Assembly (NCBI GenBank): GCA_964431835.1
Contig: CAYSKO010000009.1
Coordinates: forward strand, 8,330 to 72,329
Direction of reading: 5' to 3'
Source: an uncultured Planctomycetia bacterium
Lineage (GTDB): Bacteria; Omnitrophota; Gorgyraeia; 2-02-FULL-51-18
Length of the DNA stretch: 64,000 nucleotides
Below are positions 43,701 through 64,000 of the stretch, one piece after another. Within the stretch, counting starts at the first letter, position 1. The number at the start of each line of letters is the position of its first letter. Made by a program: the position numbers and the translations under genes. The notes under the pieces were generated by a model that searched no databases, had not been told where the DNA came from, and saw only the letters and a list, made by a program, of their open reading frames with translations.

Positions 43701-46700
43701 GCGACACCGGAGTTTACCGTCTGAACGCCGACGGCACCGTCCACTACTCGGGGGGAATGGTGGGCGGGACGTACAACCGTCCGTCCACCCTGACGCATTA
43801 CACCGCCGAGGGAAGCGGGGTCTGGAGCTTCGAGTTGTCCGCCGCCGGCCCGCCAGCCGCCGGTCAGCTGTACTTCATCGCTGCGGACACGACCACAGGC
43901 CCGACGACGGCCTCGCACCGAACGATCGCCACGCTCTACAACCTTTCGTCCGTGAACGGGAGCAGCAATTTCGCGAACTCCGACACGAATTTCCGTTACA
44001 CGTTCCAAGCCGACGGCACGGTCCTCGCGACGGACGTCCGCACCGGCCGCTCTCAGGTGGGCACGCTGAACGCCGCCGGAAACGGGGTTACGTGGAATGA
44101 GAACGCTTCGCCGCGGGCTCCCGCAGGCGGCGGTCCCATCGCGGTGACGTTGCCGGGCAACGACACCGTCACGCTGACCGGCGGCACGAGCGGCTTCCGC
44201 ATCACCGAGAACGGCACGGCGATGACGACCGAAGACATGATTTTCGCGGGTCCCGGCGGCCAGAGCCAAGTGCTCCGCCGTGGTGCCGAACTCAGCCTTT
44301 CGAACGATACAAACCACAACGTTAGCATCATCTCGGGCGTGATGGAATTCAACGGCGGCGCTTCCGCCAATCTCCCGAACGGCCACCTTCAGACCATCCA
44401 GCCTCCGACCCCGCCCGCCGAAGGGGACACGAGCAACGACCGGAATCAGGCCTCCGGCCCTACGACTAGTTCCCCCGGCCTCAACACGACTATCTCGCGC
44501 GACCCCGGCGGCCGCCTTCGCCTCACGGGCTCCATCGCGATCCAGAACAATCAATTCGTGATCACCGAAGGCCAGCGGATCAATATCAATACCACCGGCG
44601 ACTTCCGCTTCGGCGACCGGGCGATGACCCAGCAGGGCTCGTTCATGTTCGCGCGCCTCACCGAGCCCGATCCGAAGAAGCGCGAAGCGAACCCGAATCG
44701 CAACCAGCGCGCCGAGATCGTGACGCTCGGCGACTGGCAGTCGAACCAGCGCGCGCACCTGAGCCACACGTTCCCCAAGGAAGGCGCGACCGGGCTCCAG
44801 CGCCATTACAAGACTGAGGCCGAAAACGCGATCAACGATGGCAACGCCTCCCGCGCAAGCGCCGCGATGAACATGATCAGCGCCGCGGGCCAGGCCTACG
44901 CCATCCGCGAGCTTTCGGGCAGCGGCGCCCGAGAGCTTAACGACGTCGCGCAGAGCGGCACCTTCAACAACTTCGGGTACAATGACGTTCTCACCGAAAT
45001 GGACGAAGCGCAGCTTGCGCAAATCATCGGCGGCAACCGCCAGTTCGCCGCGTTTGTCGGGACTTATATGACCCTCCGCGGCATCCACCAGCAGCAGGAA
45101 GCTCACAAGGACGACGACGACGTGAAGGCCCAGCGCGCGCAGTTGGCCGCCATCGGCTTCAACCTGAGCAGCGACTACGATTGCGCCCGCTTGGCGCAGG
45201 CTCTCTCGGAGCCAGACTCCATGCTCCGCATCGAAGTGGGAGGCACGAGCCGCTACCTCCGCACCAAGGACGTCGAGGTCGGCGGCAAGAAACTCGAGAA
45301 GTGGGTCAAGGACGCTTCCAGCGACCTGCGCACGTGGTTCGACGAAAAGGCCTACGAAGAGAACGGTGGCAGCGGCAGCAAACTCACGTGGTGGGACCGC
45401 AACAAGTCGTACGTGTACATCGTGGGCGCGATCGCGCTCGCCGCCGCCACCTGCTGGATCCCGGGCGTGAACGTCGTGACGGCCTCCATCGCCGCGGGCG
45501 TCGCGTTCACGGTCGCGGTCGTGGCGCAGGTCGTCGCGAAAGGCCTCGACAATCTCCGCAAAGGCAACGGCTTCTTCACCGGGATGGCGACGGAGTGGAA
45601 TTGGAGCCCGATCGATAAGAACGGCATCCTTTTCAACGCAATCAACGCGGCCGCGCAGAGCTTCGCGCTCGCCAACGGCCTTGCGGCGCTGGGCCAGCTC
45701 GTGAATCACATCAAGTCCGCCGCCGACGTCGCAAAGAACGCGGGCCAAACGCTGACCACCGTGCAGCGCGTGGCGACCTCGGTGCAGGCCATGGGCACCG
45801 TGACCCGCGCGGTCACCTTGGGCCTTACGTTCGCCGCGGCGAACGTGGCGATGACCGTCGGTGCGCAAGCCGTCGAGAACATCCTGAGCGGGAAGGATAT
45901 CGGGCACAAGATCACGGCCGGAATGGTGTGGACCGCCGCCATTCAAGGTTTCGTCGTGGGCGTCACGGCGGGTTACGGCGCGAGAATGTACGGCGCGAAA
46001 GAGGCTTTCGCCAAGGCCACCGCGGGAATGCTCACGCGCGGCGCCATCACCAACGGCGTCATCGCGACCGCTCGCGCGGTTCAGTACGGCGTGATGTTCA
46101 CGGTGCCGTCCATGATCATGTGCGGTCTCGGCTTCCTCCTGGCCGCGGAAGTAGGCGCCGCGGCGGACGGCAAGACTCTGACCACGACCGACCGCGTCAC
46201 CGCGTTCGTCTCCGGCGCGATCGTCGGCATGATCATCAACTACGCGACCTCCCACAAGGCGACCGCGAAACTGAACGATTTCGCCAAGAACACCGGCAAG
46301 CTCGGAAGCGAATCCGGCAAAGGATTCCGGGACGGCGTCAAGTGGACCTACCAGCAGGGCTCCGCGTGGCACGTCACGAAGACATTCGGTCTGGGCGCCC
46401 TGGAGTGGGGCACGATGGTGTCGGTTCCGTTCACGATCGCCAACGGCCTCGTCGACGCGATGAAGAACGGGTTCGCCAACGGCGGTGGCATCGCGGGCGC
46501 CCTCAAGGGCATCATCGGCTGGTTCCACCCGATGACCGGCTTCACGATCCGGGGTCCGAGCGGCAAGCAGGACGATCAGGTCCGCATCGGTTCGCGCCAC
46601 GGCCTCGGCATGCTCTCGAACGCGATGACGCACGGCTTCATGGAAGGCCTCTATCTGAAGCCCATTCTCGGCGCCTTCCAGAAAGTGCACACGGCGCCCC

Positions 46701-49700
46701 CCCTCGGCGCTCCGGTTCAGGGGTGGGGCGGCTGGGCGATCGAGAAGTCGGTCCATCTCACATTCGACCAGGCGCACATGGCGTTCGAAATGGACTTCAT
46801 CAGCCGGGCGCTCGAGCTGGCCTCCCAGAAAGACGAGCACGGACACGACCGCGCCAGCACTGGTTTCAACGCTTTCACGGCGAACCTCATCATGTGGACG
46901 GTGCTCATCACGAAGCCCGAGGCGCTTTCGCGCGGCGGGTTCAAGGAATTCGCCCGCGAGATGAAAACCCACGCCGCGCAGGCCGAAGGCGTCCGCGCGA
47001 CGGGCCAGGGCAAGAACGACGGCGGGCTCAATACGAGCGTCGCGCGTCCCGAGACGATCGCCGAGACCGGCCAGCGCCTTGCCGAAAGCACGGCCGCCGA
47101 ACGCCAGACCGCCGCCGAAGAAGCTCCAAAGCATCAGCAGGCCGCTCATGAGCAGCTGAACCAGGATCTCGCCAACAACGTCCCGAAGGCGGAAGCGGTC
47201 GCCCGTTTCAATATGAACGTCGCTGAGGCGGACGCATCCAATGCCGCACGGACCCACGGCACCGGCTCCACCCAGCACTCCGAGGCGCTCACGCGGCTTT
47301 CGAACGCGCTCGCTGACGGTCAGGGCAAACTGCCGAAGGCCGAATTCGAAGCCGCCAAGCAGAATCTCACGGAACAATTGAACGAGGTCAACGCGTACCT
47401 CGCAGGCGGCACAGCGACGAACGCCGAGCTCGCGGCCGCCGCGCACCTCGCCGTCGCCGCCGCTCCGGTCGCCGGGCAGACGGCGCTCGCCACGACCGTT
47501 CTTCAGCAGATGCGGACGGCCGTCGCCGCGAACCCGGCCGAGGCCAAACAACTGGTCGACGCGTTCCGTGCGATGAATACCGCCTTCCAGACGTCCGTCT
47601 GGGACTCTGTACGCAAGTTGCTGACCGGCGAAGGGAACCCCATGACAGCGCTCCTCGCCGACGCCGCCGCGAACGTGGCCCGCACCGCCCTCGACGCGTG
47701 CAGGCCGGAGAACGTCGTCGACGCCGCTTCGGCGAAAGCCGCTTCCGAGGTGCTCAGCGCGCTGAACGGCGAAAAAGTCTTCCAGAACGCGATGAGCGAC
47801 GGGCAGAAGGCGCAGGTCCAAGCCCGCGCGCTCGAAATCGAAACGAAGGTCGGCGAGCTCATGAAGACGGAAGTCGACGTCACGAATCTCGAGATCTTGA
47901 TCGACACGATCTCCGCTCTCCAGGGCGTGAACGCCGCGGTCGGCACGGCCTCCGCCGCCACGATGCTCGAAGCCACGGGCAAGGCCCGCACGGCGGCTCT
48001 CGACAAGCTCCGCGAATCCAACCCCACGAAGGACGGTTACGACAAGGCCCTTGAAAACACCGAAAAGGCGTTCGAGCTGAGCACGAAAGCCACGGCGATC
48101 GTGACGCGCTCCACGGCGAAGACGCCCGCCGTCAAAGCCGCGCTCCAGACTAACGCCGACAGTCTGCTCAAGGATTCGGCGACGGCCCGCGAGAAGGTCA
48201 CGGCGGACTTGGAAGGCGCCATGGGCCCCTCGAAGGCCGGACTCAAGTTCATCGGCAGCATGATGAAGTTCCTTCAGGCCAACGCGAGCTTCCTGTCGGC
48301 CGCGATGCTCGAGATGAAGAACGCGGGTGTCAAGATCGACGCCGACGGCGTGAAGGCCAATCTCAAAGCGGTCGTGGCGACCGTCGAAAAGGCGCTGACT
48401 TTCGTCGCAGAGAATTTCGCCGATTTCGCGAAGTTGGGCCTGGACGGCCTGAACATGGTCGCCGACGTCATGAAGGCTTCGATGGATCTCCTGCGCCTGG
48501 CGGCCAAGGAAGGCGTCAATATCGAGGCGGCGACCGTGAAGCTCGTCGAATTGGCCGGCAAGTTCATGGCCCACATCGCGGACGCCAACATCGAGAAGCT
48601 CGTGGGCGGCGACTCCGGCAAGCTGCTGAATCTCGCGAACATCATCAACATCAACGCCCAGGCCATTAAGTTCGCCGCCGACGTCCTCGGTCCCGAGCAC
48701 GCGGCCGTTCAGGAAGCGGCGGAACACCTGGCGAACGCGATCACGAAGGTGAACACCTACATCGCCAACAACGTGAACCGCCTCATCGGAACCGACGCCG
48801 CGAAGCTCGCGGACGTGGCGAACGCCCTCACGATGAACGCGCAAAGCCTGCGCGTGGCCGCCGAGATCCTCGGTTTCGAGAACTCCGCGGTCCAGAAGGC
48901 CGCCACGACTCTCGCGGACGCCATCACGAAGGTCACGAATCACGTCACGAAGAACCTCGCGGCGATGGTCGGCGGGGACGCGAACAAGCTCGCGACCGTC
49001 GCTTCGGCCATCCTCGCCAACGCCTCGTCGCTCGGTGTCTCGGCCTCGATCCTCGGACACGGCCACGCGTCGGTCGTCGCGGCGTCCCGCGCGATCACGA
49101 ACGCCGTCCGGGCTATCACCGCACACACGAGCGCCAACTTCAACGCCCTGGTCAAGGACGCGAGGTCGCTCGAGAAAGTCACGACGGCCCTCGCCGACGC
49201 GGTCACCGCCCTCACGCGCGTCGCCACCAGCATGTCGCTCAACGCCAAGGACTACCGCAAGCTGAGCGAGGCCTCCGGCGAAGTGTTCTCGCTCATCGCG
49301 GGCAAGGTGTCCTCGGCGATCTCGACGATGGCGGACAAGGCCTCGACCGCCGCCGAGATGCGCAGCGTCGCCAACGCCCTCACGAAGGCGATCAACGCCG
49401 TGAACGTGATGGCTCAGCGCAACATGGTGGACGGCGTCGACGCCGCGAAGGTGACCGAGCGCCTGAGCAAGACGCTGGTGAAAGTGCTCGAAACGATGTC
49501 GGGCCAGAAGGCCAAGGGCAACACGCTTGCCGAGAAGATGAAGAACGCCCTCGAGAATTCCGTGAAGGGCGAAATCTGGTCGGGCCTCGAGACGGGCGCC
49601 AAAGCCGACATGCTGAAGGCCGCCCGCGCGGCTCTAGGCGGTGAAGCCGCCCGCGTGATGGGTGAAGGCGAGATCGGCGCCGCTGTCAAACAGGTCTCGG

Positions 49701-52700
49701 ATCATTACACGAAGCAGGCCGAGAGGGAGATGGCCAACGGCAAGGTCGGCGAAGCCGCCGAGTCGTACTCCGAGGCGCTCCGCGTCGATCCGATGTCGGC
49801 CACAGCCGTCGCGTCCGCGATCGTCGAAGCGGTGTCCTCGAAGGACGCGCGCGCGGTCGAGCAGCTCACCGAGAAGCTCCAGGACAACCCGACCGCGCAG
49901 AAAAACCTGCACGAAGCGCTTAACAAACTGATGGAACAACAGAACCTGCAGGTCAGCGACGCGCAGGTGGCCGAAATGGTCAAACTCGCCGAGCGCCTCG
50001 CGGTCGCGGAGCGTTCGCAGGAAACCGCCGCCGAAGCCAAGCCCGCCGAAGCGCGTCCCGAGACGGCCGAGGCGCCTCGCGTCGAGGGCGAGAAGAAGGC
50101 CGAAGGCGAGGCCGAGGCGAAGGATCCCACGCAGAAACTGAAGGACCTCGTCGACCAGAGCGGCATGCGGAAGAAGCTGACCGAAGTCCGCGACCGCCTC
50201 CAGGAAGACATCAAGAATAGCGCTGAGCAGGTGGAGCTGGTGAATAAGGCGATGGACGGCGTCATCGCCGAAGACGTCGCGTTCGTCCAAAAAGCCCTCG
50301 ACGGCATGCCGGAAGCCAAGCGCGCCGCCGCCGAGCAGGCGCTTAAGGAACAGTTGAACCTCGAAGTCGGCGAAGCTCTTCTGGGCAAGGACGGGAAACC
50401 GACGGGTGAATTCCGCGGTTCGAACCTGACCGTCCGGACCGCCGACGGCATCCTGACCCGCCTGGGCAACGCCGCGGTCACCCTCAGCGGACAGTCGAAA
50501 GCGCGCCAGGTGCGCGGCGCGGCCGTGGACGCAGCGATGGCCAAGCGAGACAAGGCTACGGCCGAGAAGAAAGCCACCGATCCTTCGACGGGCGCGAAGT
50601 GGACCGCCGAAGCGAAGGATGCTCTCACGGATCCCAAGCAGCTCGGCAAAAAATACGTCCGCATCGGCGGCGAGCTTTTCAACCGCAAGGCGGTCAGCGA
50701 AGCGGTCGCCAAAGCCGATGGACCCGCCGCGAAGAAACACGTCGAATCGCTGAAAGGCGAAAATAACAAGCAGGCCCGCGAAGACCTGAAGAGAGAGTGC
50801 GAAACCGCGACCGAAGTCGATCCGCTCGTCACGATCACCGTGGACGTCGACGGCACGCCCACGAAGGTCCGTCTCCATGCCGACGCATTGCGCGCCGAGG
50901 TCGAGTCCTACGAAAAGGACGCCGCGAAGGTACAGGAAAGCAAGGGCCAGGAAGGCACCATTCTTAATGAAGGCCGCCAGGCAAACGGTGATCCCGCCGT
51001 ACCGACCGGTAAGGGCACAAAGACCGCCGCTCCGGCCGCTCCGCGAACCACGGCCGAGGTTCCCAAGCCGGAAGCTCCGAAAGCCGCCGGAGAAGCGGGT
51101 GGTTCCGCGAAACCCGCCGCCGAGGGATCGCGTCGTCACCGCGCGAGCGCCGACCCGGCGAAGCTCGAAAAAGAAGCCGAAGGCCACCAGAAGAAGGCCG
51201 GAGAGCTCAACGAAAAAGCCGACCGTCTCGACGCGCGCGCCGACGCCCTGCGCGCCGAAGCCGAAGACGTCGCCCGCAAAGCCGAAGGCAAAGAAGGCGA
51301 AGCGGCCGCCGCCCAGAGCCAGGTCCAGCGCCTCTTGGCGAAAGCGGAAGCGCTGAGCAATAAAGCGGAAGGTCTCCGAGCCGAAGCGCGCGCCGCCCAT
51401 AATAAAGCCGAAACGCTCGAGAAAAAGGCGGCCAATCTGACGGCGGAATCCATCAATCTTCGCGCCAAGGCCGCCGAGAAACGCCGCGAGGCCCAAGATG
51501 TCGAGAAGAAACCGAAAGTCCAGGACGTTAACCAGGAGGACGCATTCCAGGACGGCGTCCACTACAACGCGGCGACCGACGGCCAGATGGGGCGCTCCGA
51601 AGTCTGCCGTTACGACCGCCGGACCGATTCCGTTTTCCGCAAGTTCGTCGCCGAAGGCAAGACCGCCTGCGACGCCGAGGCGCGACGCATCCAGCGCAAG
51701 GAAGGCCGCGAGATGACCGCCAAGGAAAAAGTCTTCTTCATGACCGAATTTGTGACCGAACGCATCGATTACGACAAGCCCGCTCTCCAGAAGATCAAGG
51801 CGAGGGCCGACGCAGCCGGCCGCGATTCCGTCGACATCGGCGAGATGATCAAAGAAGGCGTCGGTGTCTGCCGCCAGAAGGCGATGCTTGTCGGCTTCCT
51901 CCTCGCCGAAGTGGGCGTGAAAGCCAAGCTCTCCAACGGCGGCGCTCTGACCCACACGGGCGAACTCGGCGAGACCTACGGCGGCCACGCGTGGCTGACC
52001 GTCGAGGTGAACGGCAAGAAGTTCTACTTCGACCCCACGTGGGCCGAGGGCCAGAGCGCCAAAGACATGCGCCTTCTCTCGATGGATAGCGCGACCGTGC
52101 AGAAGACTTACAAAGAAGACATGACGCCGATGGTTAAGGGCGGCCGCAAACTTTTCGTGAAGGACGGCGGCGCTTCGCGCGCGGAAGCTCTACGAGCCGA
52201 GGCCACGGCCCTCGAGAGACAGGCCGATGCGAAATGGGCCGAAGCGGAAGTCGCCCGCGGGAGCGACGAAAGCTACCGCCGTGAGGCGACAGCCAAGGAA
52301 GCCGATGCCGCGCAACTGACCGGCCAGGAAGCGCCGATCAGGCGCGACGCGCAGTCCGCCTCGCGCCAAGCCAACGACGCCCGCCGGGAGGCGTCGAACC
52401 TCCGCCAGGACGCCGAAACCAAGAGCGAGAGGGCCGAGTCTTACGAAGTTCAGGGCGCCGAAGTCCGTGGCCGCGCGGCCGTCGAAGGGGCCAAGGCCAA
52501 CGAAGTCGGCGAGATGGCGCGTGAAGTCCGGAGCGAACAGGAAGACGCGGCGCGCCTGGCGACCGATCTCAGCGGGAATCTCCGCGGCGAGCGCGAAGCC
52601 GCTCCCGAGGCCGGAGAATCCGCCCGCCTCGCCGAGCCTGCCGGAGAGACCGCTTCCGCCGAAGCCCGCCGCGGCAATCTGCGCGGCCGCCAGGCCAGCG

Positions 52701-55700
52701 ATGTTTTGGGCGAGCTCGTCCGCGAAGGCGAGATCACGCCGGAACAGCGCGACGCGATCCAGACGCGCGTCGAGAAGATGCTCCGCGAAGGCAACGGCGA
52801 GATGCAGCCTTCCGCGTTCCTCGACCTCATGTCCACGATGCAGAACCAGATGAGCGCGAAGTCGTTCCGCCGCTCCTTCGACACGATGGATCAGTTCTGC
52901 GGTTCCTGCTCAATCCTCGCACACAACCAGATTGCGATGCGCGCCGCCGCCGGCGAGAACGTCGCCGCCGAAGTCCAAACGCTGAGCGCGGTCATCGAGA
53001 CGGCCCAGAGGGTCGGCGCGAAGATCGTGGATATCACGCCCGCCGAAATCCGCGACTTCGCCGCCGCCCGCGAAGTGCTCGCTTCGCGCGGCCAGGAAAT
53101 CCTTTCCACCGCGATCGAAAGCCGCATGGACGGTGAAGCCCGACGCTCCGCCGAAGCGGGGATCGCCCCGCCCGCGCTCGGAACCGTCACCGAAGGTCCC
53201 GAGATTTCCGCCGGTGAAAGCACTTCGAGTCCGAAGGTTGAAACCCGCGTCGAATCCGAAGCCAAGACCGAAACCAAGATCGAAACCGAAACGCGCACCG
53301 AGACCGAGACGCGCACTGAAGCCGAAGTTCGGACCGAAGCTGAAGTTCGCACCGAAGCGGAAGTTCGCATGGAAGCCGAAACCCGTACAGAAGCCGAGCC
53401 TACGCGGGCCTCCGCCGCGGCTCCCGAAGCCGAAGCACCCCGCGCCGAGTCCAAACGCGCGGCGACCGCCGAAGAAGCCCAGGTCCTCGAGAAGCGCGCC
53501 GAAGTCGAGGCCGCCCGCGCCGAGAAAACCGAAGCGCAGGCGAAGGTGGCCGAAAACAAGACCGCTCTCGAACAGAAGGCGGCTGAGCTCGACGGCGCCC
53601 GTGCCGCCGCCGAAACCGCCGCCGAAGCGGACAACGCGGCCGCCAAGCGTCTCTCGGAAGTCGACTCCCCCGAGCGCTTGCGGGCGGAAGTGGAACAGGG
53701 CGAGCGCACCGTCACCGAGAAGAAAGCGGAGAAGGAAGCCATCAGCCAAGAGAAGGCCCAGTGGAAAGCCCGCAACGAACTCGAAGCCGACCTCAAAAAG
53801 AGCGACGTCGTCGACAAGACGGAGGCCCGCGACATGGTGCTCGACGAAATCGCGGCGAAAGGCCCCTCGCCGGCGCGCGCCGAAGCCCTCCGGGAGGCGG
53901 AGAGCGCCCTCGAGGCGGCCAAGAATCATCCGCTCGGCGAACCGGCCGCACGCGCCGCGGCGGAAGCTTCCGCGAAGGCTTTCGACACCGCGAACATGAA
54001 GTGGCCGTCGCCCGTCAATTCCGCCACGCAGCGCGCCCGCGGGATCGCGCGGCTCGAAAAGGCCGAAACGGCCAAAGAAACGGAAATCCGGACGGCGGAA
54101 TCTGAAACACAGGCCAAGCGCGACCTTCTGGCCAGCGTCGAGGCTTCGAACGCCGGCAGCGCCCCGACCGCCGAAACGGCCAAACGCGAAACCGCGGCCC
54201 GCCGCGCCGAAACGGAAAGCGAAGTGCGGCGCCTCGAAGCGGAAGTCCAAACTTTAAGCGAACGGCAGACCGTCCTCGAGACGGAAGCCGCGCGCACCGG
54301 GGAAAACGCGGCCGCCCGTGAAGCCGAGCTGACCGTGCTGACGGTCGCCGACGCCCTCGTCGTCGAAAATCGCGCGAAAGTCGAAGCCGCCAAGACCGAA
54401 CACGCCTCCGCGAAAGAGAAGCTCGCCGAAAATAAGGCCGCGCAGGAAAAGAAATCGTCCGAGATCGAGACCGCCAAAGCGGAAGCGAAAGCCGCGCAGG
54501 AAACGCACGCCGACGCGTCTGTCCGTGCGAGCATCGCAATCAAAGAATTCCTCCGTATCCACAGCGAGCCGGCTCCCGCCGAGGGCCGCGAGACCGAGGT
54601 GCGTCGCGAGGAAATCGCCCGCATCGAAACGGAGCATACCGCCGCAAAAACCGCCAAGGAACAAGCGAACGTCCGCATGTACGAAGCGGGAGACAAAGTT
54701 TACCTTCTCGAAGCGGAGGGAACCGCCCTTAAGAAACAACAGTCCCTTCTCGAAGCGGAAGTCACGCGGACCGGCGAAACGGTGGTAGTCCACGAAGCCG
54801 CACTCGCCGAAAGCCTCCGCACGGTTGAAGCCCGCACGGCGCAGGCCGAAGCGAAGGCCGTAGAGGTCGAAGCGAAGGCCGAACAGGCAGAGGCCGTGCT
54901 CGATCTCACTGCGAAGACATCCGAAGCCCAAGCCGCCCGAGCCGAAGCGGATCAGGCCAAACAAGATCTCCGGAAGAACGGGGAAGACATCCGGAAGGCC
55001 GCGACCGTCAAGACTCAGGCCGAGTCAGCCCGGGACGCGGCCTTCTCCCGCGCCTCCAAAACGCGCCTGGCTTTCGACGCGGCTACCGCTCAGGTAGAAG
55101 CCCGCCGCACGTCGCTCGCCGAAGCTGAAAGCCAGCTCGCCGTCGAGACGACTCGTGCCGAAGGGGATTCCCGGACGCGCGCCGACATTCAACAAAGTAA
55201 AGCGGGGAACGCGGCCGAAACCACCAAGGCCGAGGGCCAGCTGGCTACCGCGAAGGAAAGTGCCACCGCGACCCACGCTCCCGAGGCGGAAGCCGGCAAG
55301 CGGTTCGAAGAAGCGTCGCGCGTCGCGGAAATCAAGAGCGCCGAACTTTCGACCGCCGAAACCACCGCCTCGCAGAAAAAGAGTGAACTCGCCACTCTGG
55401 TCGAGAAATGGAACGAGCTCGCCAAGCGCGCCACCGAGGGAGATCTCGCCGCGAAGGACGCCGAGTCGATTGGCCTGGACGTCCAGATCGCGGAAAAGCG
55501 AGCCGAAGTTCAGCACGCGGAGACGATCGCGCAGACCGCCCGTGAAGCGTCCGTCGTCGCCGAGACGGCCAAGACGGCCGCCGCCGAAGCGCTCAACGAC
55601 GCGATGATCGAGCGGGGCAACGCCGATCTCGAAGTGGCCGAGCTTAGCGCGCGCGTCGACTTCCTGCGCCGCGAAGGTGAGTATCTCAAGATACAGGAAA

Positions 55701-58700
55701 GCATCCTCAACGCCGACATGGACGGGGCCCGAACGAAGGTGGAAGCCGAGAAGTCCGAGCTCGCCCGAGCCGAAGGGGAAGAGGCGAAGGCCAAGGCGGA
55801 AGCGGATCGCGCGGGCCAGGACGCCGCCACTGCGGAGGCCGAGTATATCAGCGCGTCCTCCGAAGCGTCCCGCGCCGAAGCGATCCGTACGGGTCTTGAG
55901 GAAAACACCAGCCGCACCCAAACCCGCGTCGAAGAGACGACCGCCGCCGTCGAAGAAGCCCGCACGCGCGTGGCCGAAGCCGACGCCCGTCTGGGCGAAG
56001 TCGAATCCAAGGGCACCGCCGCTCCCGAAGCGTCCGCAAAGCCCACCGCAGAGGCCGCGCAAGATGCCGCCCGCGCGTACGAAAGCGCCCGAGCGGAAGT
56101 CGAGCGCGTCTTTAAGATCGTGGAACGCGCCCAAGGCGAACACGCCGCCCTTCTGGGATCCAAGAGCCTGGTCAAGGGCATGCTCGAGAAGCTGAACGCC
56201 GAGGTCGAAACCCTCGAGACGAAGAAACAGCAGCTCGAGACGATTCTCGAAGCCTTGAACGTCAAACTCCAGAGTGCCGAAACCCGCGCCGCCGACGGCC
56301 AGCGCCGCGTGGCGGAAGCGGAAGGACGTCTCGAGCAGGCCCGCACGAACCGCGACGCCCAGGCGCCGCGCCTTGAGGCGACCCGCCGCGAAGCGCGTCA
56401 GGAACGCCAGCGTGCGACGGTCGAGCGCGAAGCTGCCGAAACGACGGCGGGCGAAGCGCGCTCCACGGCCGAAACGGCCCGCGCCACCGCCGCCGAATCG
56501 CGCCGCGCGGAAGAGCCTCTCCGCCAGAAAGCCGCCGAAACCCAGGCCAAGCTCGCCGAAAAACGCGCCGAGCGCGACCGGGCCGCCGAGGCCACGAAGC
56601 CCGAAGATGTCACTCGCCTCGAGTCCGAGATCCGCGAAGCGGAAGCCCAGGCCGAAACCGCCGCCCGCGAGCTGGCCGAGGCCGAAGGCAAAACCGGCGA
56701 AGCCGAAGCCGCCGCTCGCTCCGCGGCCGCCGCCGAAACCGCCGCCGAAACCGAAGTTTCGCGGACGCGCGTCGAAGAAAAACGCCTCGGCGAAGAAGCC
56801 GAAACGCAGGAACGCGTCGCCGCCGAAGCGGAATCCCAGAGCCGCGACCTTGACCGCCACGTCGCGGAGGCCGAGCGCCAGGTTTCGGAGGCCCGCGCCG
56901 ACGTGAGCCAGACCCGCGCCGAAGCCGCCGACACCGGCCGTGAGATGAACGAGACGCGTCGCGAGATCGAGGAGATCGAAGACCGCATCAACGTCCTCAA
57001 ACTCCAGATCGTGGGCCTCCTCACCCAGCTTTCCCAGCTCGACGACGACATCGAGAAGGCCGCGCAGCGCGTCGCCGAAGCCAAGCTCGATCTCTCCAAG
57101 GCCCGTGCCGCGGAAGAGAAGGCCCAGGATGCCGTCGCTGAGACCCTGCCCCAGCCGACCATTCACGACGCCGTCAGCTTCGCCGAAGCGCTCCCGTCGA
57201 TGGAAGCGCGCCTCGTCGGCCAAAAGATGCCGCCGTCCGAACGCCGCGCCCGCATGGCGGATCTCGCCGGGAAAGCTCTCGAGCTTGCGCGCGTCGAATA
57301 CGAACGTCGGACCATCGAAAAGAAACTCGGCGTGGGAGAAGGCAGCACGATGACCGTGGGCGAGATCGCGGCGCGGTACCACCAGGCGCTCGAAGGCGTG
57401 AAGAAATTCCTCGAAGCCTCACCGAAGCCCGCGAACGCGGCCTCCGCCGCCGCCCGTGCGCGACTGGTCGAACGTCTGGCCAAGACGCTCGCCGCCCAAG
57501 AAACGCCGGTCGTGAAGGGCCTCGAAGTGAAAGGGGAGAGCGTCGTCGAGATCGTGGGCGCGGGCAAGAAGGTCGGCTTCGATTCGCCCGACGTCATGAG
57601 CCTCGCGGATCTTTCGAAAGCGCACGCCGACTCCTTCCGTACGCGCACTGTCGCCGAGCTCGCCGATCATCTTTCGAACAACGCCGCCGAGCTCCGGCGC
57701 GTGGAAGCGCACCTCGAGAACCCGACGCGCCCGACGCTTCAGTTCGAGCCATTCGGCGAAGCGAAGGTCGAAATCGACGGCCGCAAAACCGCCGCGCGCA
57801 TGGAAATCACGAACGAAACGCTCAAGAAGGCCGTCGCGGAAGTCGAGAAACGCCAGGTGAAGGCGCTGGCGGAATTCTTCGAGAAGAACCCGGAGAAGGC
57901 CGCCGCCTACCGCGAGGCGCTCGAGGCCCAGGCGAAGAAACAGTCCGAGAACGCGCAGGACGTCTCGCAAGCCAAAGACACGATCGACGGCTTGGCTCGC
58001 ACGGCGCTCGTCGAAGCGCTCGAAGCTCTGCCTCCGGCCGCCCACGGCGTCCGCGTCGAAATGCTCCGCCTCGCGCTCGGCCTCAACGGCAACGTTCCGG
58101 CCGCGATCCTGGCTCTCCAAAACGCCGGTCTCGCTCCAAAGACCGGCGAAACCGCCGCGGCGAAGCCTGCCGAGCGCGACACGCTGATCCGCCTCCTTCT
58201 CGACCTGCCGCCCGCCGCGCGGAACGCGGCGCTCTCATCTCTCCGCGCCGCCGAGCGCACGCACCGCGCCGGGGAAGCGCGCCAGACGATCGAACGCATG
58301 GAGAAGCTCACCCTCGAAGAGCGCGAGACGCTGAACCGCGCCGCCGAGACGGGCGACCTGGACACGCTGACGGGCAAGCTCGAGCCGCTCAAGGCGTTCG
58401 GCCGCGACGCCCTCTACGAAGCCACCGAGCTCCGCGGCCAGCGCGTGGCGGAGGCGTCCTCCGCCGCCCGCGTCGGCACCGCGATCGACGCGCTCATGCG
58501 CCTCAACGTGGACGCCGCCGGCGCCGCGAAAATACGCACCCAGCTTGAGTCCGACATCGCCAACCGCGGCAAGGAAGGCTACGTCGACAACCGCACTCTC
58601 TTCGATTCGAAGCTCGCGGAGCCGATCAAGTCGTTCGCGAGCGAAACGCTCGTCGAGGCCGCTCGCCGCATCGAAGCGGGCGAGGGCGCGAAGGGCCGCG

Positions 58701-61700
58701 TGACCGCCGCCCAGCTCGAGACGCTCCGCACGAACCTCGCCGAAGGCGCCGCTCCGAAGGCCCCCGAGGCGCTTCGCCGCTTCGACGCGGAAATCCTCGC
58801 CGAAGCGCTCGAAGTCGGCAAACTGGAAACTCTGAAGGCGGCCGAGATCGTCCGCACGCTGACTCTGGCCGAGCGGAACGCGATCCGCGAGCTCGGCGCC
58901 GTCGACGGAACGCTCGCCCGCTTCGACGCCGAAACACTCGCGACCGCGCTCGGCATGAACAAAGCCGAGCTCGCCGCGGCCCGCAAGCTTCTGGACGGCG
59001 TGCAGGAGACGGTGCTTCGCGGAATCCTTTCCGCGCTGCCCGACGGCGCGCGTTCCCTGACTGTTCGCGACATCCTCGACGCCGCCCGTCCCGCCGACGG
59101 CATCCTGAGGGACAAAGTGGAACTCGCCAAGGCGGAGTTCGACGCCTTGAAGCTCCACGCCGAGGAGCGCGAGGCGATCGCGGCCGACGCGGCCGCCGGC
59201 CGTATCGACGCGGCGCGCGAGAAACTCACCCGCGCCGCCGAACGCGCGGCCGTGGCGCTCGAAACCGAGCTCACCGAATCGGTCACCGCCAAGCGGATCA
59301 CGCCCGAAGTGAAGGCCGAACGCCTCGAGGCCTTCCGTAAAGGTCTCGCCGAGACGATCGCGGCCGTGGAAGCTCCCGCCCTCGGCGAAGCGATGCACCG
59401 CCTCACCAACTCGGCGGAGGTCCTGAAGGCGCGCAGAGCCTTCAAGGCGTTCGAACAATTCCTCGTGTTCCAGGTCAAGGCGGGCCGTATGACCGAGGGC
59501 CAGCGCCGTACCGCGCTCCTCGAGATGCGGAACGAGCTCCTGCACGGCCGGTCGGACGCGGTCAAGGAAAATGCGGTCAAGGCGCGCTTCGACGGCTTCA
59601 AGGCGTTCTCCCTCGAAGTGCTTCGCGAGGCGGCCGGCGTGAGCGCTGACGTCGCCTCCCGCGCGCACCAGGCGGCCCAGCAGACGATCTTCGAATTCTC
59701 TCGCTCTATCCAGCGTGATCTTCTGGCCAAGGTCGAAAAGCTCACTCTTCTGGCCAAGGTCGAAGCCGGGGATCTCGCGGTTCTTCCGGAAGGCCTCCGC
59801 GGAAAATCGCTCGAGGTGCTGCGTCAGGCCCTCGGGGCGACCTCCGAGCAAGTGGTTTTCGCCCGCGAAGCGGTCGGCGCCCTTGCGATTCCGGAGCTCC
59901 GCCGCCTGGGCGTCGAAGTGGCCCGCGATCTTCTGCGCCGCGCCGAAGCCGCCGAGCGCGACGGCCGCGCCGCCGAAGCCGCCGAGCTGCGCGACGCCTT
60001 CGCGATGGTCGGCGCCCGCGTCGCCGTGGAGCTCGAAGCCCACGCCGAACGGGCCGAAAAGAACGGCAACAAGGCCAAAGCCGCGGAGTTCCGCGACGCC
60101 GCCCGGTCGCTCGTCGAGGAAATCCGGAGCGAAGCGCTGGCCGCGGAAGAGGTCGCCCGCCTCTCGTCCGCCGAACTCGCGAGCGTGAAAGAAGCCCTCG
60201 TCCGCGGCGAAGTGAAGGGAGAGCTGGCCCTCTTCGGCGAACGGGCCGTCCGCAAGGCCGTCCTCGCCCGCGAAGCCGCGGAAGGCAAGTTCCGCGGTGA
60301 CGGCACGACGCGCGGCGAGCTTCCCGAGAAGGTCCGCGCGTTCTCGATCGAAACCCTCAAAGCGGCGCTCGGCGTCCGCGCCGAGCTCGTGCGTCCCGTG
60401 ACGAAGGTCACGGTCGAAGGACGCGAGCTCTCGAGCGCGGTGGTCCGCGACGCGCTCGCCCGCAACGTGGACGCGCAAGCCGACGCGCTCCTGGCCCGCT
60501 TCAAGGTCGCGCCCGCTCCGCGTTTCTCCGCCGCCGACTGGGTCTCTTCAAAAGTCGGCCGCGAGACGCGTGACGCGCGGGCGCAGCGCAAGCTCACCGA
60601 GACCCTTCTGGGCATGGGCGAAGCGAAGACGCACAAATTCGGCTACGAAGCGCCTCCCGCGCCGGCTCCTCGCCGGACCCGCAGCGGCGCGCCCGCGCGT
60701 GAAGGCAAGCTGGATTTGGGAGTGTTCTTCGACGCCTACCAAGTCCTTACCCAGGGCCGCGCCCAGGTCTTCAGCCGTGAAGCGATCAACCGCGCGCTCC
60801 AGAAACTCGAACAGAAGACGATGGGCGTCGACGCCGCCGCGAAATTCGTGCTCGAATGCCTCACCGTGGGCAACACGATGGAGCAGTACAACAAGCTGAA
60901 GACGCAGAAGCTCGACAAAGAAAGCGAAAGGGAGAACCTGGCCGCGCTGGAGGTCATTGCCAATCCGATGGAAGTTGCACGCCGCCTCGGCGAGTCCGTC
61001 GTCGAGAAGATCCAGGCGAAGGGCGAGGCGTACCTCCTTGCCAAAGAAGCGGTCGCCCAGCTGGAAAACGCGACTACCCGCAGAGCGCTCGAAGTCGCTC
61101 AGAGCGAACTCATGACGGCCTTCCGCGAAGCGCGCGGCGGCGCGAAGAACCAGTCGTTCCTCGATCTGGCCGTCAAGACGGGCATGGTCGAGAAGGCCGA
61201 ATTCGGGGACGTGTTCAACGCCTACAAGGCGCTCCGCGTCGGGGAAACCTCCGGTGGCTACGCCGAGTTCAACACGAAGAACCGTGCGTCGATCGAGCGC
61301 GTGATGTCCGAGTACAAGCTCGAGTTCGACGCGTACGAGAAGAGGCTTTCCGGCGACCCGATGACCCGGATCAAGCAGCTCAACGAGATCATGCGCCAGG
61401 AACAGGCGGCCGCGCCGGGCGAACGCGTCGGCGTGATCAAGGCGACGGCGATCACGGATCTCATCTTCCGCAATTCGTACGTGTCGGAAGGCACGAAGAT
61501 GCACCTGAAGGACGCCGGCTGGCGCCCGGGACAGCGCCTCATGATCATGCATCTCATGGGGAACAACAGCGTCTCGCTCGGAACCGCCGGCGGCAAAACG
61601 TACACCCTCATGGGCTACCACATCATGCGGCGCCTCACCGACGGCGAGACCTACCGCGGCAAGCAGGTCGTGGAAAGCCCCGACGCCGTGAACCAGATCA

Positions 61701-64000
61701 TCTCCGCCATGGAGCTCAAACTCCGCGTGGAAGGCAAGAAGACGGACGCGGAGATCTTCAGCGAGCTCGAATCGCGCCGTTCGGAGCTCAACTCCGAGCA
61801 TATCGTCATTAAAAACATGATGAAGGCCTCGGGCCTGCGCCTCTTCAACGCGACCGCCTACCAGGGCGGCGAGCTGCGTAACCACTCGGAACGGAGCGCG
61901 CGCGTGATCGACGCTCATACCGACAAGAACACGATCGTCGTCATCGATACCGTCAACAACGTCCACTTGAGGAACGAAGCGAAGTCGGCTGCCGAGAAGG
62001 GCGACACCAAGCTCTTCGAAGCGCTCCTCAAGTCGCGCTTCATCACGCTCGACGAATTCCACAAGTTCCTTTCGAACAAGAACTCGGGCATCATCGCGGA
62101 AAACCAGCGCATGCCGGAGCCTCGCGAAATCGAGTCGCTCATGGAAAACGTGATTTCGAAAATCGCGGACTCAAACTTCAAGCTCCATTGGGAGCCGGTG
62201 CGTTATTCCACGGAGACCGAATTTGAGGCGGCCGTCGCGAAGTACACGAACGGCGAAGGCGCGAACGAAATGAAGATCCTCATCAATTCCGAGACCGGAC
62301 AGATCAACCTGAGCAAGGCTCTCAACGACAGCCTGCGCACGGCGCTCGGCCCCGAGTTCGGTAAGGTGCGCTCGGTCATCTCGGCGCTGGACGCGAACGA
62401 ATTCCATTACAAGATCCATACCGACAAGGAAGGCAAGACGAAGGTCATCCCGGTCAACGGCCGCGAAGGCACGCCGAGCCCCGATTCGAGCTTCCAGGAC
62501 ATCGAGTACTCGATGACGCTGGCCCTGAAGCACACGAAGGGCAACACGGCGACCGCCCGAGAGATGGTCAGCCGCAGCGATACCTCGATGTCGAGCGCGA
62601 TCGCCGAGAGCGTGCACATCCCCGGCGCGGTCGTCACCGGCGTCTCGGGCACGCTCGGCGGCCTCGAGGCTCTCCAGAAATTCCAGATTGGCGAGAGGGT
62701 CGTGAACATCTCGGGTTCCGTGCTCGACGCGGTCCGCGTGGGCGGCACGAGGGGCCAGATCTTCGACATGTCGACCGGCGAGCAGGAATGGCTCGACGGC
62801 ATCAATTCGTCGCTCCGCGAGAACGTCACGGTACTCCTGGTCGTGAGCGCGAAGGAGCGCGACGCGATCGAGAAGTTCCAGAAAGGCGACTTATTCAAGT
62901 CCGCCGACGGCAAGCCGGTCGAAGTCGCGAAGATCGACTCCAACACGAGCGGCGAATCGAAGAACGGCCAGGCTTCGGAGATGGATCAGCTCGTCAAGTC
63001 GCCGTGGGGCAAGGACGGCCGCGCCCGCGTCATCCTCATCACCGAGCGCGGCTGGACGGGCCGTGACTACGCCCAGAACGCGGAGCTCGCGAAGTTCGTC
63101 GACGGCAAGCTCATGCACCAGTCGGTGCACATGGCCTTCTACAAGGCGCACACGATCGGCGCCTCCGACTTCGTGCAGGCCCTCGGCCGCGCCGGCCGCA
63201 GCGAAACCGAGGCCACGGTTCGCCGCTACTTCCTCGTGGACAAAACCGAGATCCGCCAGCGCCTTTCGGATCTGAACGACGGCCGCGTCCGTTCGGATTT
63301 CCGCCAGAAACTGAACGAGCGCCTCCGCGACAACCCCGCGGCGGTCGGCGAGACGCTGCGTCTCCTCAACAATTACGAGCGCCGCCTCAACATCGAAGAC
63401 TTGAGTCCCTCCGAACAGCTGCGCTTGAACGCTCAGTTCCTCGAGCTTTCCAACGCGATCGCCGACGGCGCGCGTCACACGGTCCGCGAGAACTGGCGCA
63501 GCTCGATCGAAATCGACCCGTTCCATCAGGCCATCAAGGCCGCCGCTCTCGCCGGCGGCAAGGGGAGCGCCCACTACCGCCGTCTGGACAAGGCTTACAA
63601 GGATCTCCTCGGCAAGCAGAGCGAAGGCGGCGATCTGACGCTGAAGGACGCCGGCGTGGGCAGCGGCGTCGACTTCGTGATGGACACGGCGCGCCAGAGC
63701 GTGAAGAACGCCAAGGAAGCGTGGAAGAACGTCGTCGACAGCATGGACGCGTCGAGCTTCGGCGCGGGCCGCCTTCTGGGCCGCGTGCCCTTCTCGATCC
63801 GCTTCTGGAAAGGCATCGTGCCGATTCCGTCGACTTCCGCGCCCGCGTACGAAGCGCGCCAGACGCTCGCCAAGCTCGAAGCGCTCGAGAAGGCTTTCCT
63901 GACCGGTAACATCGAAGCGACGCGCCTGCAGGTCGAGCGCGTCCAGCTCGGCCTCGACTCCGGCAAGGTCCGTGTCGAAACGCGCGGCATCGGCCGCCTC
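2..64000 (+). CDS. Internal fragment of a giant multidomain protein gene (21,333 codons in window; 5' and 3' ends lie outside the window)
   Basis: Continuous translation in the phase beginning at nt 2 gives protein-like sequence end to end. Hand translation at more than 10 checkpoints stayed in the same phase (atg 71, atg 545, GVTMAILD at 6881, GHGT at 7052, RWSYKK at 11222, atg 30527, atg 45986, Cys 51869, atg 52886, Lys 61595, GKVRVETRGIGRL at 63962..64000). The ORF track contains no + ORF in this phase, whereas an in-phase stop would have produced a reported Met-to-stop ORF, so there is no stop in 64 kb. Third codon positions are strongly G/C-biased in this phase only. Recognisable catalytic motifs (S8 triad, TGase triad, Walker A) all fall in this phase. 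Confidence 0.9.
6790..7650 (+). other. Subtilisin-like serine peptidase (MEROPS S8) domain embedded in the giant ORF; catalytic Asp/His/Ser all present
   Basis: Asp motif GVTMAILDSGFN (Asp codon 6899..6901). Calcium-loop-like DDDGNGYIDDVDGWNF. His motif DKLGHGTNVARAAL (His codon 7055..7057). NGAKVINLSIGGG, then AAAGNQG (oxyanion Asn region). Ser motif SESGTSMAAPLVAGAVALLMSKYP (Ser codon 7460..7462). Order and spacing D...H...N...S match subtilases. Confidence 0.85.
7750..10450 (+). other. Beta-rich region with several DUF5666-like short modules (tentative family assignment)
   Basis: Recurrent pattern G(T/S)V..VD....(T/S)I.V.G..V.V....(T/S)..........L..L..G..V.V. Examples: GTVLRDSRSRTITLADLKPEDYVQIRLVQTPEGWHAERV near 9570 and DATVEDVEGRIFPGGLADLSALLQAGQVRVSIKL near 9800. 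Family name is from memory of the DUF5666 consensus and is not verified. Confidence 0.35.
10570..14740 (+). repeat. About 10 tandem 140-aa beta-sandwich repeats (MAM/CUB-like jelly-roll; family tentative)
   Basis: Each unit shows ...G.W..Q.....(S/A)..S..I...........(S/T)F.WK(V/L)....(A/S).D.(F/L).(F/V)Y(V/I)DGV.......(G/D).W......L..G.H.L.W.Y(D/K)(R/K).(S/G)......D.A(W/Y)(I/V)D(E/D)(V/I). Units begin near 10570, 11000, 11330, 11740, 12170, 12610, 13030, 13470, 13900 and 14320 with X(T/G)F.YP.GT.LPLP.G(Y/F)T..G.W.NQN. Confidence 0.6.
14790..18670 (+). repeat. 7 tandem 185-aa repeats resembling Laminin_G_3 / concanavalin-A-like lectin domains
   Basis: Each unit contains ...Y(V/L)YFR(M/T)......GYA..(I/V)......(L/I)YR.......(I/L)......GAS(Y/F)DP(A/T).YH.LK(V/A)..DG..I.V.VDG........D..Y.G........(G/I)......P(V/I)WFDDV(K/R)(V/A). 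The WFDDV-type terminal motif recurs near 15285, 15840, 16400 (TFDDF), 16970 (IFDDF), 17525, 18085 (SFDDV) and 18655. Confidence 0.6.
18700..30450 (+). repeat. About 36 tandem 95-115-aa repeats (DUF5666-like beta modules; novel-looking array), some with Cys-pair inserts
   Basis: Period is about 300-340 nt. Recurring unit: G(E/D)W.(F/L)......(F/L)..........(S/T)LL..V......I.L.DG..I.(L/I)G...I(Y/F)WWNG.......(A/S).L...I......G..V. Examples start at 19378, 19687, 19960, 20270 and 20570, continuing to about 30450. Variant units carry Cys pairs: CAIGQGC (19241..19261), NCWNCY (23087..23098), NNCGSSLCP (23403..23425), CNSWSCY (27472..27489). Confidence 0.6.
30450..36450 (+). other. About 2,000-aa non-repetitive region of unknown function (mixed alpha/beta, many W/Y/D/N)
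   Basis: No internal periodicity seen by eye and no catalytic motif recognised with confidence. Contains the segment GISAFSAMSIF...AGAKLLVHMGDDHYITVDEYDAENDQIWFYED (30560..30930), which loosely resembles a papain/C39-like fold without the Cys. Confidence 0.4.
36450..42600 (+). repeat. About 21 tandem 85-115-aa repeats of a QQMRIQGPG family (unassigned)
   Basis: Unit: (F/V)...G(F/G)(S/A)(V/L).(A/V)(T/S)FE(K/L)(N/D)GV(S/T)QQMRIQGPG(A/S).VEV.V.(A/T)...DGT....AW(V/I)G(R/G).........NA...A..AA..DLST...REAF(M/L)..FE. The QQMRI motif occurs at roughly 38870, 39190, 39450, 39760, 40120, 40450, 40760, 41030, 41350, 41600, 41950 (TQTMRIAQAGG) and 42250; earlier copies are more divergent. Confidence 0.8.
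42900..44350 (+). other. Thr/Gly/Asn-rich beta region with YD/RHS-repeat-like motifs (tentative)
   Basis: Motifs of the Y.YD..G.. type: REFTYNPDGSS, EHSEYNADGDRTRMT, QRIVYNDGSVGVQTTRG, GVYRLNADGTVHYSGG, FRYTFQADGTVLATDVRTGR, TLNAAGNGVTWNENAS. No canonical RHS C-terminal DPxGL pair was recognised. Confidence 0.35.
45400..46540 (+). other. Polytopic membrane block: 8-9 predicted transmembrane helices (Gly/Ala-rich)
   Basis: Hydrophobic stretches of about 20-25 aa: SYVYIVGAIALAAATCWIPGV; VVTASIAAGVAFTVAVVAQVVA; ILFNAINAAAQSFALANGLAALGQLV; VTRAVTLGLTFAAANVAMTVGAQAV; ITAGMVWTAAIQGFVVGVTAGYGA; AITNGVIATARAVQYGVMFTVPSMIMCGLGFLLAAEVGAAA (probably two helices); VTAFVSGAIVGMIINYATS; TFGLGALEWGTMVSVPFTIANGLV; GGIAGALKGIIGWFHP. 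Short polar loops lie between them. The block is flanked upstream by beta repeats and downstream by alpha-helical/charged sequence. Confidence 0.6.
48590..49320 (+). repeat. About 4 tandem 60-aa alpha-helical repeats
   Basis: 180-nt period: N..(K/R)L.G.D..KL..(V/L)A.A...NA..L..AA.(I/V)LG.(E/G)(H/N).(A/S)V..AA..LA(N/D)AITKV......N, starting near 48595, 48775, 48955 and 49135. Confidence 0.5.
51780..52070 (+). other. Transglutaminase-like (papain-fold) domain core with Cys-His-Asp
   Basis: GEMIKEGVGVCRQKAMLVGFLLAEVGVKAKL (Cys codon 51869..51871). GETYGGHAWLTVEVNGKKFYFDPTWAEG (His codon 51986..51988, Asp codon 52031..52033). This reproduces the G.C...A.L...LLR..G(I/V).AR ... HAW.EV...G.W...DPT signature of transglutaminase-like cysteine-protease domains. 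Confidence 0.65.
53263..53400 (+). repeat. In-frame 18-nt (hexapeptide) short tandem repeat, about 8 units
   Basis: ETKIETETRTETETRTEAEVRTEAEVRTEAEVRMEAETRTEAE; nucleotide units such as actgaagccgaagttcgg / accgaagctgaagttcgc / accgaagcggaagttcgc at 53315..53368. Confidence 0.8.
57400..60550 (+). other. Alpha-helical region with recurring F..E.L..ALG-type motifs (unassigned)
   Basis: RRFDAEILAEALEVGK, ARFDAETLATALGMNK, FKAFSLEVLREAAGVSAD, RGKSLEVLRQALGATSEQ, VRAFSIETLKAALGVRAE each precede Ala/Leu/Arg/Glu-rich helices. Confidence 0.4.
61380..63260 (+). other. SecA-like SF2 (DEAD-like) ATPase motor domain: NBD1, PPXD-like insert, NBD2
   Basis: Q-to-Walker-A spacing identical to SecA: PGQRLMIMHLMGNNSVSLGTAGGKTYT (Lys codon 61595..61597; compare SecA [27 protein letters not shown]). 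Walker-B position is IVVIDTVNNVHLRNEA (compare ALVDEVDSILIDEA), so the catalytic Glu appears replaced. An insert of about 230 aa ends ...SMTLALKHTKGNTATAREMVSRSDTSMSSAIAESVHIPGAVVTGVSGTLGGLEA, paralleling the SecA PPXD C-terminal part and the KLAGMTGTADTEA motif. Motif V-like ARVILITERGWTGRDY (compare IATNMAGRGTDI). Motif VI-like FVQALGRAGRSETEATVRRYFLVD (compare [24 protein letters not shown]), codons 63184..63198 for GRAGR. Confidence 0.6.

Follow-up and report, generated by a model that had tools for sequence, protein, structure and literature searches.

We analysed a 64,000-nucleotide stretch of contig CAYSKO010000009.1 (hereafter the window) in which a transglutaminase-like domain had been described inside the coiled-coil part of a giant protein. 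A stop-to-stop scan showed that frame +2 forms one stop-free open reading frame (ORF) of 21,333 codons from nt 2 to 64,000, open at both window ends; in the numbering used here, residue i corresponds to nt 3i-1..3i+1. No stop codon was observed in this frame whereas ~536 would be expected by chance from base composition, and we therefore regard the frame as truly coding and as belonging to a giant gene. The Pfam domains of the window fall in the same frame, and its guanine-plus-cytosine (GC) content is 64%. As the ORF runs past the window both ways, the actual protein is longer than 21,333 residues. We confirmed that residues 17,175 to 17,372 constitute a genuine transglutaminase-like domain with an intact Cys-His-Asp active site (Table 1).

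The domain is recognized by the standard Pfam model. As an isolated sequence it scored 28.3 bits against Transglut_core (PF01841; gathering threshold 23; E=2.3e-6), and the score stayed above the gathering threshold when the domain was embedded in longer segments of 3,501 and 4,334 residues (23.7 and 24.2 bits, respectively). It further matched Pfam DUF553 with 22.9 bits (gathering threshold 20.5). An exhaustive HMMER search (phmmer) of 1.84 billion (1.84e9) representative proteins returned 148 relatives at E<=1e-3 (lowest E-value 9.3e-14), and Cys, His and Asp stood together on the aligned columns in 144 matched stretches. In an alignment of the closer subfamily (A1), Cys and His are invariant and Asp is nearly so. 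The best sequence match in the PDB was 9crn_A, the "transglutaminase-like domain-containing protein" TglA of S. pyogenes (E=8.8e-5), with all three catalytic residues aligned, while the subfamily profile matched 9crn, 6g49 (a protein-glutamine gamma-glutamyltransferase; E=1.9e-5) and 3isr (a putative cysteine protease). No further transglutaminase-like copy was found across the 21,333 residues, so the domain is present in a single copy. It had no match in PADLOC or PHROGs and there is thus no support for a defence-system or phage origin.

Structure prediction gave the same picture. An AlphaFold2 model of the domain based on a 10-sequence alignment reached a predicted template modelling score (pTM) of 0.77, with predicted local distance difference test (pLDDT) values of 83-98 over most of the core (blocks 21-130). 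In the model, the Cys (model residue 106) is the first residue of helix 106-119, His145 lies within strand 139-152 and Asp160 directly follows strand 155-159. Active transglutaminase-like (TGL) domains carry the Cys at a helix N-terminus and the His and an acidic residue on successive strands (PMC3495828); the modelled arrangement agrees with this and the predicted fold is papain-like. Using Foldseek against the PDB, 9crn was ranked first (7.5e-6) and 4xz7, a "TGase" (transglutaminase), second. The pseudomurein endoisopeptidases PeiP and PeiW also ranked high (8z4f, 5.2e-4; 8jx4, 5.3e-3), and the matches also included a putative protease, arylamine N-acetyltransferases (NATs), geldanamycin amide synthase and vasohibins. 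All of these matches belong to the transglutaminase/papain-like fold, with sequence identities of the window domain to its solved relatives of only ~21% as reported by Foldseek. Searching a viral fold library resulted in the same NAT/Pei/transglutaminase picture and nothing beyond it.

A preliminary description of this DNA had called the region a textbook transglutaminase-like core, which is borne out by the hidden Markov model score above gathering, the triad on the catalytic columns of the 144 homologous stretches, the model and the fold search. The three codons it had named as catalytic are exact. The peptide it had quoted is present in frame +2 from nt 51,782, so that its start at 51,780 was a trivial 2 nt out of frame. 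The interval it had flagged (51780-52070) captures the core but falls short of the full domain at ~nt 51,524-52,117, because a helical N-terminal part sits upstream of 51,780.

This N-terminal helical part, together with the core, is common to the five or six closest relatives. Its consensus reads DG-x-AY...W-x-x-REV-x-x-FD-x-R-x-DP-x-F-x-x-FL, then G-x-x-LT-x-x-EK, and the window domain carries the corresponding subfamily motif R-x-E-V...D-x-R-x-D...F..F. The core motifs of the subfamily are G-x-G-V-C-R-[HQ]-[KR]-A, G-[GR]-H-x-W and D-P-x-W. Against a profile of nine relatives that excluded the query, the window sequence scored 139.8 bits over residues 17,175 to 17,368, N-terminal extension included. 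PF01841 is matched by eight of ten aligned subfamily members, and seven of the ten match the EDR1/CTR1/ARMC3 peptidase-like family (PF14381; best E=3.1e-11). The relatives P0002 and P0003 pass the PF14381 gathering threshold (27 bits), and the PF14381 match of P0001 extends upstream of the Cys helix. Judged by these profile comparisons, the domain of ~195 residues belongs to a distinct extended subfamily of the transglutaminase-like (papain-fold, clan CA) superfamily that bridges Transglut_core and the EDR1/CTR1/ARMC3 family. PF14381 (EDR1-type) proteins have been described as highly similar to peptidase families C71 (the PeiW/PeiP isopeptidases) and C93 (PMC10318531), which agrees with the Foldseek matches.

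Table 1. Features of the window. Numbers of stretches refer to the catalytic columns in the alignment of relatives.
Feature	Nucleotides	Residues	Strand	Basis
Subtilase (Peptidase_S8), full-length	6872-7606	2,291-2,535	+	120.8 bits
CBM35_2/CE2_N-like matches		~3,830-4,030
Four 3-keto-disaccharide hydrolase (DUF1080) domains and Laminin_G_3	~17100-18060	~5,700-6,020	+
Large internal repeat arrays, N-terminal part		1-1,881; 3,511-9,514; 12,188-14,177
Transmembrane-like hydrophobic cluster, roughly 6-9 segments	45413..46951	15,138-15,650	+	Kyte-Doolittle scan
Short helical repeat, past the transmembrane cluster		16,191-16,384
Upstream coiled-coil-like flank (~120 residues)	51158..51520	17,053-17,173	+	Heptad heuristic
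Transglutaminase-like (papain-fold) domain	51524..52117	17,175-17,372	+	Pfam, subfamily profile, AlphaFold2 model, Foldseek
Cys, predicted nucleophile, motif GVGVCRQKA	51869..51871 (TGC)	Cys17290	+	Column C in 147 stretches; aligns to Cys of 9crn_A
His, motif GGHAW	51986..51988 (CAC)	His17329	+	Column H in 153 stretches; invariant in A1
Asp, motif FDPTW	52031..52033 (GAC)	Asp17344	+	Column D in 157 stretches
Downstream coiled-coil-like flank (~106 residues)	52169..52486	17,390-17,495	+	Heptad heuristic
Main coiled-coil-like zone	53489..57160	17,830-19,053	+	Heptad heuristic; weak SMC coiled-coil match
Ordered superfamily 2 (SF2) helicase/SecA-like ATPase motif set	61580..63199	20,527-21,066	+	Motif scan

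The domain forms a non-coiled island between two coiled-coil-like flanks. Coiled-coil calls were made with a crude heptad heuristic, which marks 65% of residues 17,390 to 19,050 compared with ~0% of the first 15,000 residues. The upstream flank aligns to the downstream flank without gaps (z=6.3 versus shuffles), reflecting periodic similarity. In the main coiled-coil-like zone the AT skew is ~0.4, reflecting Ala, Glu, Lys and Arg codons. Coiled coils on both sides of the domain had been proposed before and the heuristic supports them; the reported coiled coil of about 2,500 residues is roughly right in size, yet it is not continuous but a string of coiled-coil stretches with globular islands. 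One such non-coiled island lies just past the transglutaminase-like domain (nt 52679-53221, aa ~17,560-17,740); no family match was found for it, and it carries a CGSC (CxxC) motif at residues 17,633-17,636 (nt 52,898-52,909, +). A short tandem DNA repeat with a period of 18/36 nt was observed at nt 53256-53397 (+), where it encodes an ETR/TEAEVR-type peptide repeat in the stalk.

Upstream, a transmembrane (TM) cluster marks the boundary between the first 15,000 residues, which are rich in repeats and carry enzyme domains, and the helical part towards the C-terminus. After the cluster, the composition turns to Ala, Glu, Arg, Leu and Lys. Kyte-Doolittle peaks of 1.9-2.1 were found at residues 15,138-15,181 and 15,363-15,382, and additional segments reached 1.45-1.54. 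Apart from one Ala-rich stretch, no strong hydrophobic segment was detected before residue 15,138, and the same scan showed no strongly hydrophobic segment from the cluster to the end of the window. The transglutaminase-like domain lies ~1,650 residues past the TM cluster and ~3,200 residues ahead of helicase/SecA-like motifs. We discarded a positive-inside reading of the cluster, which was unreliable given the ambiguous span number and a protein N-terminus that lies outside the window.

The helicase/SecA-like region contains motifs I, II, III, V and VI in order, namely GTAGGKT (residue 20,527), LDEFH (20,683), GVSGT (20,880), TERGWTGRD (21,014) and QALGRAGR (21,059). The spacing between motifs II and III is long, which we take to recall SecA. 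The region has a single relative, a marine GOS fragment of 484 residues with 37% identity, and no match was obtained in Pfam (including short segments at E<=10), in NCBIfam or in PDB sequence and profile searches. AlphaFold2 run on these two sequences gave a pLDDT of 36.9 and the model was not used. An hhalign comparison with E. coli SecA, for which an approximate sequence was used, returned a probability of 0.58% with motif VI alone aligned. The SecA assignment is therefore to be treated as a lead, not as a result.

The three closest relatives of the transglutaminase-like domain, P0001, P0002 and P0003 (35-38% identity), are partial proteins from metagenome-assembled genomes of Candidatus Omnitrophota, and P0001 is already labelled "transglutaminase domain-containing protein" at NCBI. 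Coiled-coil-like flanks are likewise seen in P0001, P0003 and P0005, and P0001 also matches an intermediate-filament rod model. The gene for P0001 is located on a 9.5-kb Omnitrophota contig (L002; 56% GC) that resembles the window over two separate stretches. In a translated comparison, nt 15-1,982 of this contig match window residues 12,298-14,169 (E=4e-36) and nt 6,662-7,546 match residues 17,088-17,415 (E=3e-20), while its first gene encodes a polytopic TM cluster between them. The predicted order of repeats, TM cluster, coiled coil and transglutaminase-like domain is thus common to both, split in L002 over two overlapping ORFs. The overlap between the TM-cluster gene and the gene bearing the transglutaminase-like domain comprises 34 nt (6275-6308) in different frames; it represents either a real two-gene split of what is a single ORF in the window or an assembly frameshift.

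Larger relatives show a comparable architecture. In P0009 (5,200 residues; contig L003, 3048-18650) and P0150 (3,096 residues), the domain follows several hundred to ~1,400 residues after TM segments, and an FHA domain adjoins it upstream. P0150 additionally carries GNAT domains and a second transglutaminase-like domain, whereas P0009 has GT2 domains. Together with the order on L002, these architectures indicate that a transglutaminase-like domain on a stalk is recurrent and not peculiar to the window gene. The arrangement had previously been termed unusual, a view that has to be tempered, given that the closest relatives are pieces of very large, partly coiled-coil Omnitrophota proteins and that one contig has the same order. 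Neither the domain nor the subfamily alignment returned relatives in a word-indexed homology search.

With no strongly hydrophobic segment in between, the transglutaminase-like domain should be found on the same side of the membrane as the P-loop motif set, whose function would require ATP. FHA, GNAT and GT2 domains are typical of the cytoplasm, and one or more of them occur near the domain in the large relatives. For both reasons, the domain is probably located on the cytoplasmic side.

The first ~15,000 residues of the protein differ markedly in character, being rich in Gly, Ser, Thr, Asn and Asp and strongly repetitive. Pfam matches in this part comprise an S8 peptidase, CBM35_2, four 3keto-disac_hyd (DUF1080) domains and Laminin_G_3. 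The S8 domain is another candidate processing enzyme, presumably placed across the membrane from the transglutaminase-like domain.

We infer that the transglutaminase-like domain is catalytically active, since a Cys is kept at the nucleophile position of a protein that is otherwise almost devoid of this residue (22 Cys in 21,333 residues). In the proposed mechanism, the thiolate of Cys17290, activated by His17329 and oriented by Asp17344, would attack a peptide or isopeptide carbonyl and a thioester would form on Cys17290. Resolution by water would make the domain a peptidase or isopeptidase, whereas a lysine amine in place of water would let the same site cross-link proteins. We favor hydrolysis over cross-linking, at a probability of roughly 45 to 50%, because the nearest family of the subfamily is peptidase-like and resembles isopeptidases, and because processing of giant proteins by embedded peptidases has been proposed independently: a preprint on giant genes suggests peptidase domains (C39, S8) as their processing enzymes (bioRxiv 10.1101/2023.11.21.568195). 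The domain would then act as a cysteine peptidase or isopeptidase held on the stalk of the giant protein, and its target would be a bound partner or, in the case of processing, the giant polypeptide.

Several points weigh against this assignment. The solved relatives of the subfamily include an annotated protein-glutamine gamma-glutamyltransferase (6g49) as well as acetyltransferases, so that transfer chemistry is equally compatible. The window domain itself has no PF14381 match, at E<=1 as well as at E<=0.01, and we have therefore filed it in the transglutaminase-like superfamily, not as an EDR1-family member. Its sidedness is a deduction in which the number of TM spans is ambiguous and the ATPase-like region is defined by motifs. 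Both gene ends lie outside the 64-kb window. Further, library searches did not find a near-identical or full-length homologue of the giant protein, scans of genome and metagenome contigs with the domain and with the ATPase-region alignment returned no relative, and positional conservation consequently rests on one 9.5-kb contig and on the architectures of more distant relatives.

The best-placed alternative, although unlikely, is a true transglutaminase. Here, lysine would resolve the Cys17290 thioester and Gln-Lys cross-links would tie the coiled-coil stalk to itself or to partners, yielding a stable lattice or anchor. The intact triad, the match of the subfamily profile to 6g49 and the second rank of the "TGase" 4xz7 in Foldseek all suit such an activity, and substrates would be at hand in the surrounding helical zone, which contains 7% Lys and 3.9% Gln. 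However, the active members of the superfamily comprise peptidases, N-glycanases, transglutaminases and deamidases (PMC3495828), and the same triad is found in its peptidases, glycanases and deamidases. The nearest Pfam neighbor of the subfamily is peptidase-like, and no feature specific to cross-linking enzymes was identified in the domain. Sequence on its own does not separate a hydrolase from a cross-linker.

Less probable is a module that binds peptides or plays a structural role with hardly any turnover or none, comparable to Rad4, Cyk3 or protein 4.2, and that would act on the coiled coil as a docking knob. Inactive peptide-binding TGL domains are well known (PMC3495828), the ARMC3 version lacks the catalytic residues (PMC10318531), and a place between coiled coils would suit a docking site. 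Against this, the window domain and its close relatives keep the triad together with the G-x-C, H-x-W and D-P-x-W motifs, and the retention of the Cys despite the rarity of this residue in the protein argues for selection on chemistry. We give marginally less credit to other acyl-transfer or amidase chemistry (deamidase, N-acetyltransferase-like or depalmitoylase-like) with a small molecule or a modified protein side chain as substrate. A weak Acetyltransf_2 match (17.7 bits; cut-off 22.8), the NATs and geldanamycin amide synthase among the Foldseek matches and the GNAT domains of P0150 point in this direction, but the NAT scores are sub-threshold and reflect the shared core only, while the best matches are transglutaminase-type proteins. 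Finally, a chance resemblance or non-coding artefact, for example with an antisense ORF as the real gene in a region that long antisense ORFs do overlap, is practically negligible in view of the 64-kb open forward frame, the Pfam matches above threshold, the 148 homologues and the confident fold. We regarded the antisense ORF at 49,634-51,988 as a by-product of the giant coding frame, whose GC content is 64%, and discarded it.

Beyond the favored hydrolytic activity, one could envision that the domain is an enzyme dedicated to the maturation of a whole class of giant proteins anchored in the membrane, being positioned on the cytoplasmic stalk between the anchor and a SecA-like motor and either cutting or cross-linking the stalk. 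This is a speculative extension to which we assign a low likelihood, somewhat below that of the cross-linker. Cutting would free the export motor from the exported part or split the giant protein into working pieces, while stapling would covalently join neighboring stalks into an intracellular anchor lattice. If true, this would provide the first concrete and testable entry point to the question of whether giant bacterial proteins undergo processing once they are made, and in what way.

Giant bacterial genes of more than 20,000 codons were discovered recently and are still poorly understood; a central question is whether each product works as a single polypeptide or undergoes cleavage or assembly once it has been synthesized. 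An intact cysteine-enzyme domain that recurs past the membrane anchor and beside coiled coils represents a specific candidate for the processing or cross-linking of such giants. It is also experimentally tractable, as a 200-residue construct can stand in for the whole giant protein. The subfamily additionally ties bacterial proteins to the uncharacterized EDR1/CTR1/ARMC3 peptidase-like domain of eukaryotes. The domain has a known fold and falls in a known family, and the fold assignment is routine because the standard Pfam model recognizes it and NCBI already labels P0001 accordingly. What appears to be undescribed is the extended subfamily, its coiled-coil-flanked position beyond the membrane anchor of giant proteins and its recurrence in Omnitrophota relatives. 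In the literature, neither West-Roberts et al. nor a 2026 Omnitrophota preprint mentions a transglutaminase-like domain or coiled coils, and we found no paper on transglutaminase-like domains in giant bacterial proteins and none on PDB 9crn/TglA.

The closest enzymatic counterparts of the window domain are bacterial Transglut_core proteins, including TglA (9crn), the TgpA-type glutamyltransferase of P. aeruginosa (6g49) and the putative cysteine protease of Cytophaga (3isr). They possess the same Cys-His-Asp core with G-x-C at the helix start, H-x-W and D-x-x-W. In contrast, the window domain is extended at its N-terminus by ~110 conserved, helical residues, which are only partly present in 9crn, and it resides inside a giant coiled-coil-rich polypeptide, whereas those proteins are 300-700 residues long. 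In case of the EDR1/CTR1/ARMC3 family (PF14381), the likeness lies in the seven of ten subfamily members that match it and the difference in the window copy, which does not; described members are eukaryotic and often kinase-fused, with ARMC3 being devoid of catalytic residues (PMC10318531). PeiW and PeiP (C71) have the transglutaminase-type papain fold and triad in common with the window domain, but they are small, phage-derived, extracellular and wall-lytic, show no detectable sequence-level match and belong to a wholly different context. The muscle KY peptidase and erythrocyte protein 4.2 (EPB42), both listed in PMC10318531, offer an analogy only, namely a transglutaminase-fold module tied to long filamentous or coiled-coil scaffolds. 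They are separate polypeptides and not embedded domains, and EPB42 is inactive.

At the level of the whole protein, the best comparison is with the 'Dockerin-type' giants of Omnitrophota (West-Roberts et al., bioRxiv 10.1101/2023.11.21.568195), in which TM anchors are followed by SecA-related domains. No dockerin, EF-hand or TSP3 repeats were found in Pfam scans of all 21,333 residues, although the gene ends outside the window could hold them, and the GC content of the window (64%) differs from that of the related Omnitrophota contig L002 (56%). The window protein nevertheless resembles these giants in its enormous length and in a TM-free N-terminal part where domains of the carbohydrate and attachment type (DUF1080) occur alongside S8-type domains. 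Its TM cluster lies towards the C-terminus and is followed by a region that, judged by its motifs, may be related to SecA. The closest relatives of its transglutaminase-like domain are likewise Omnitrophota proteins.

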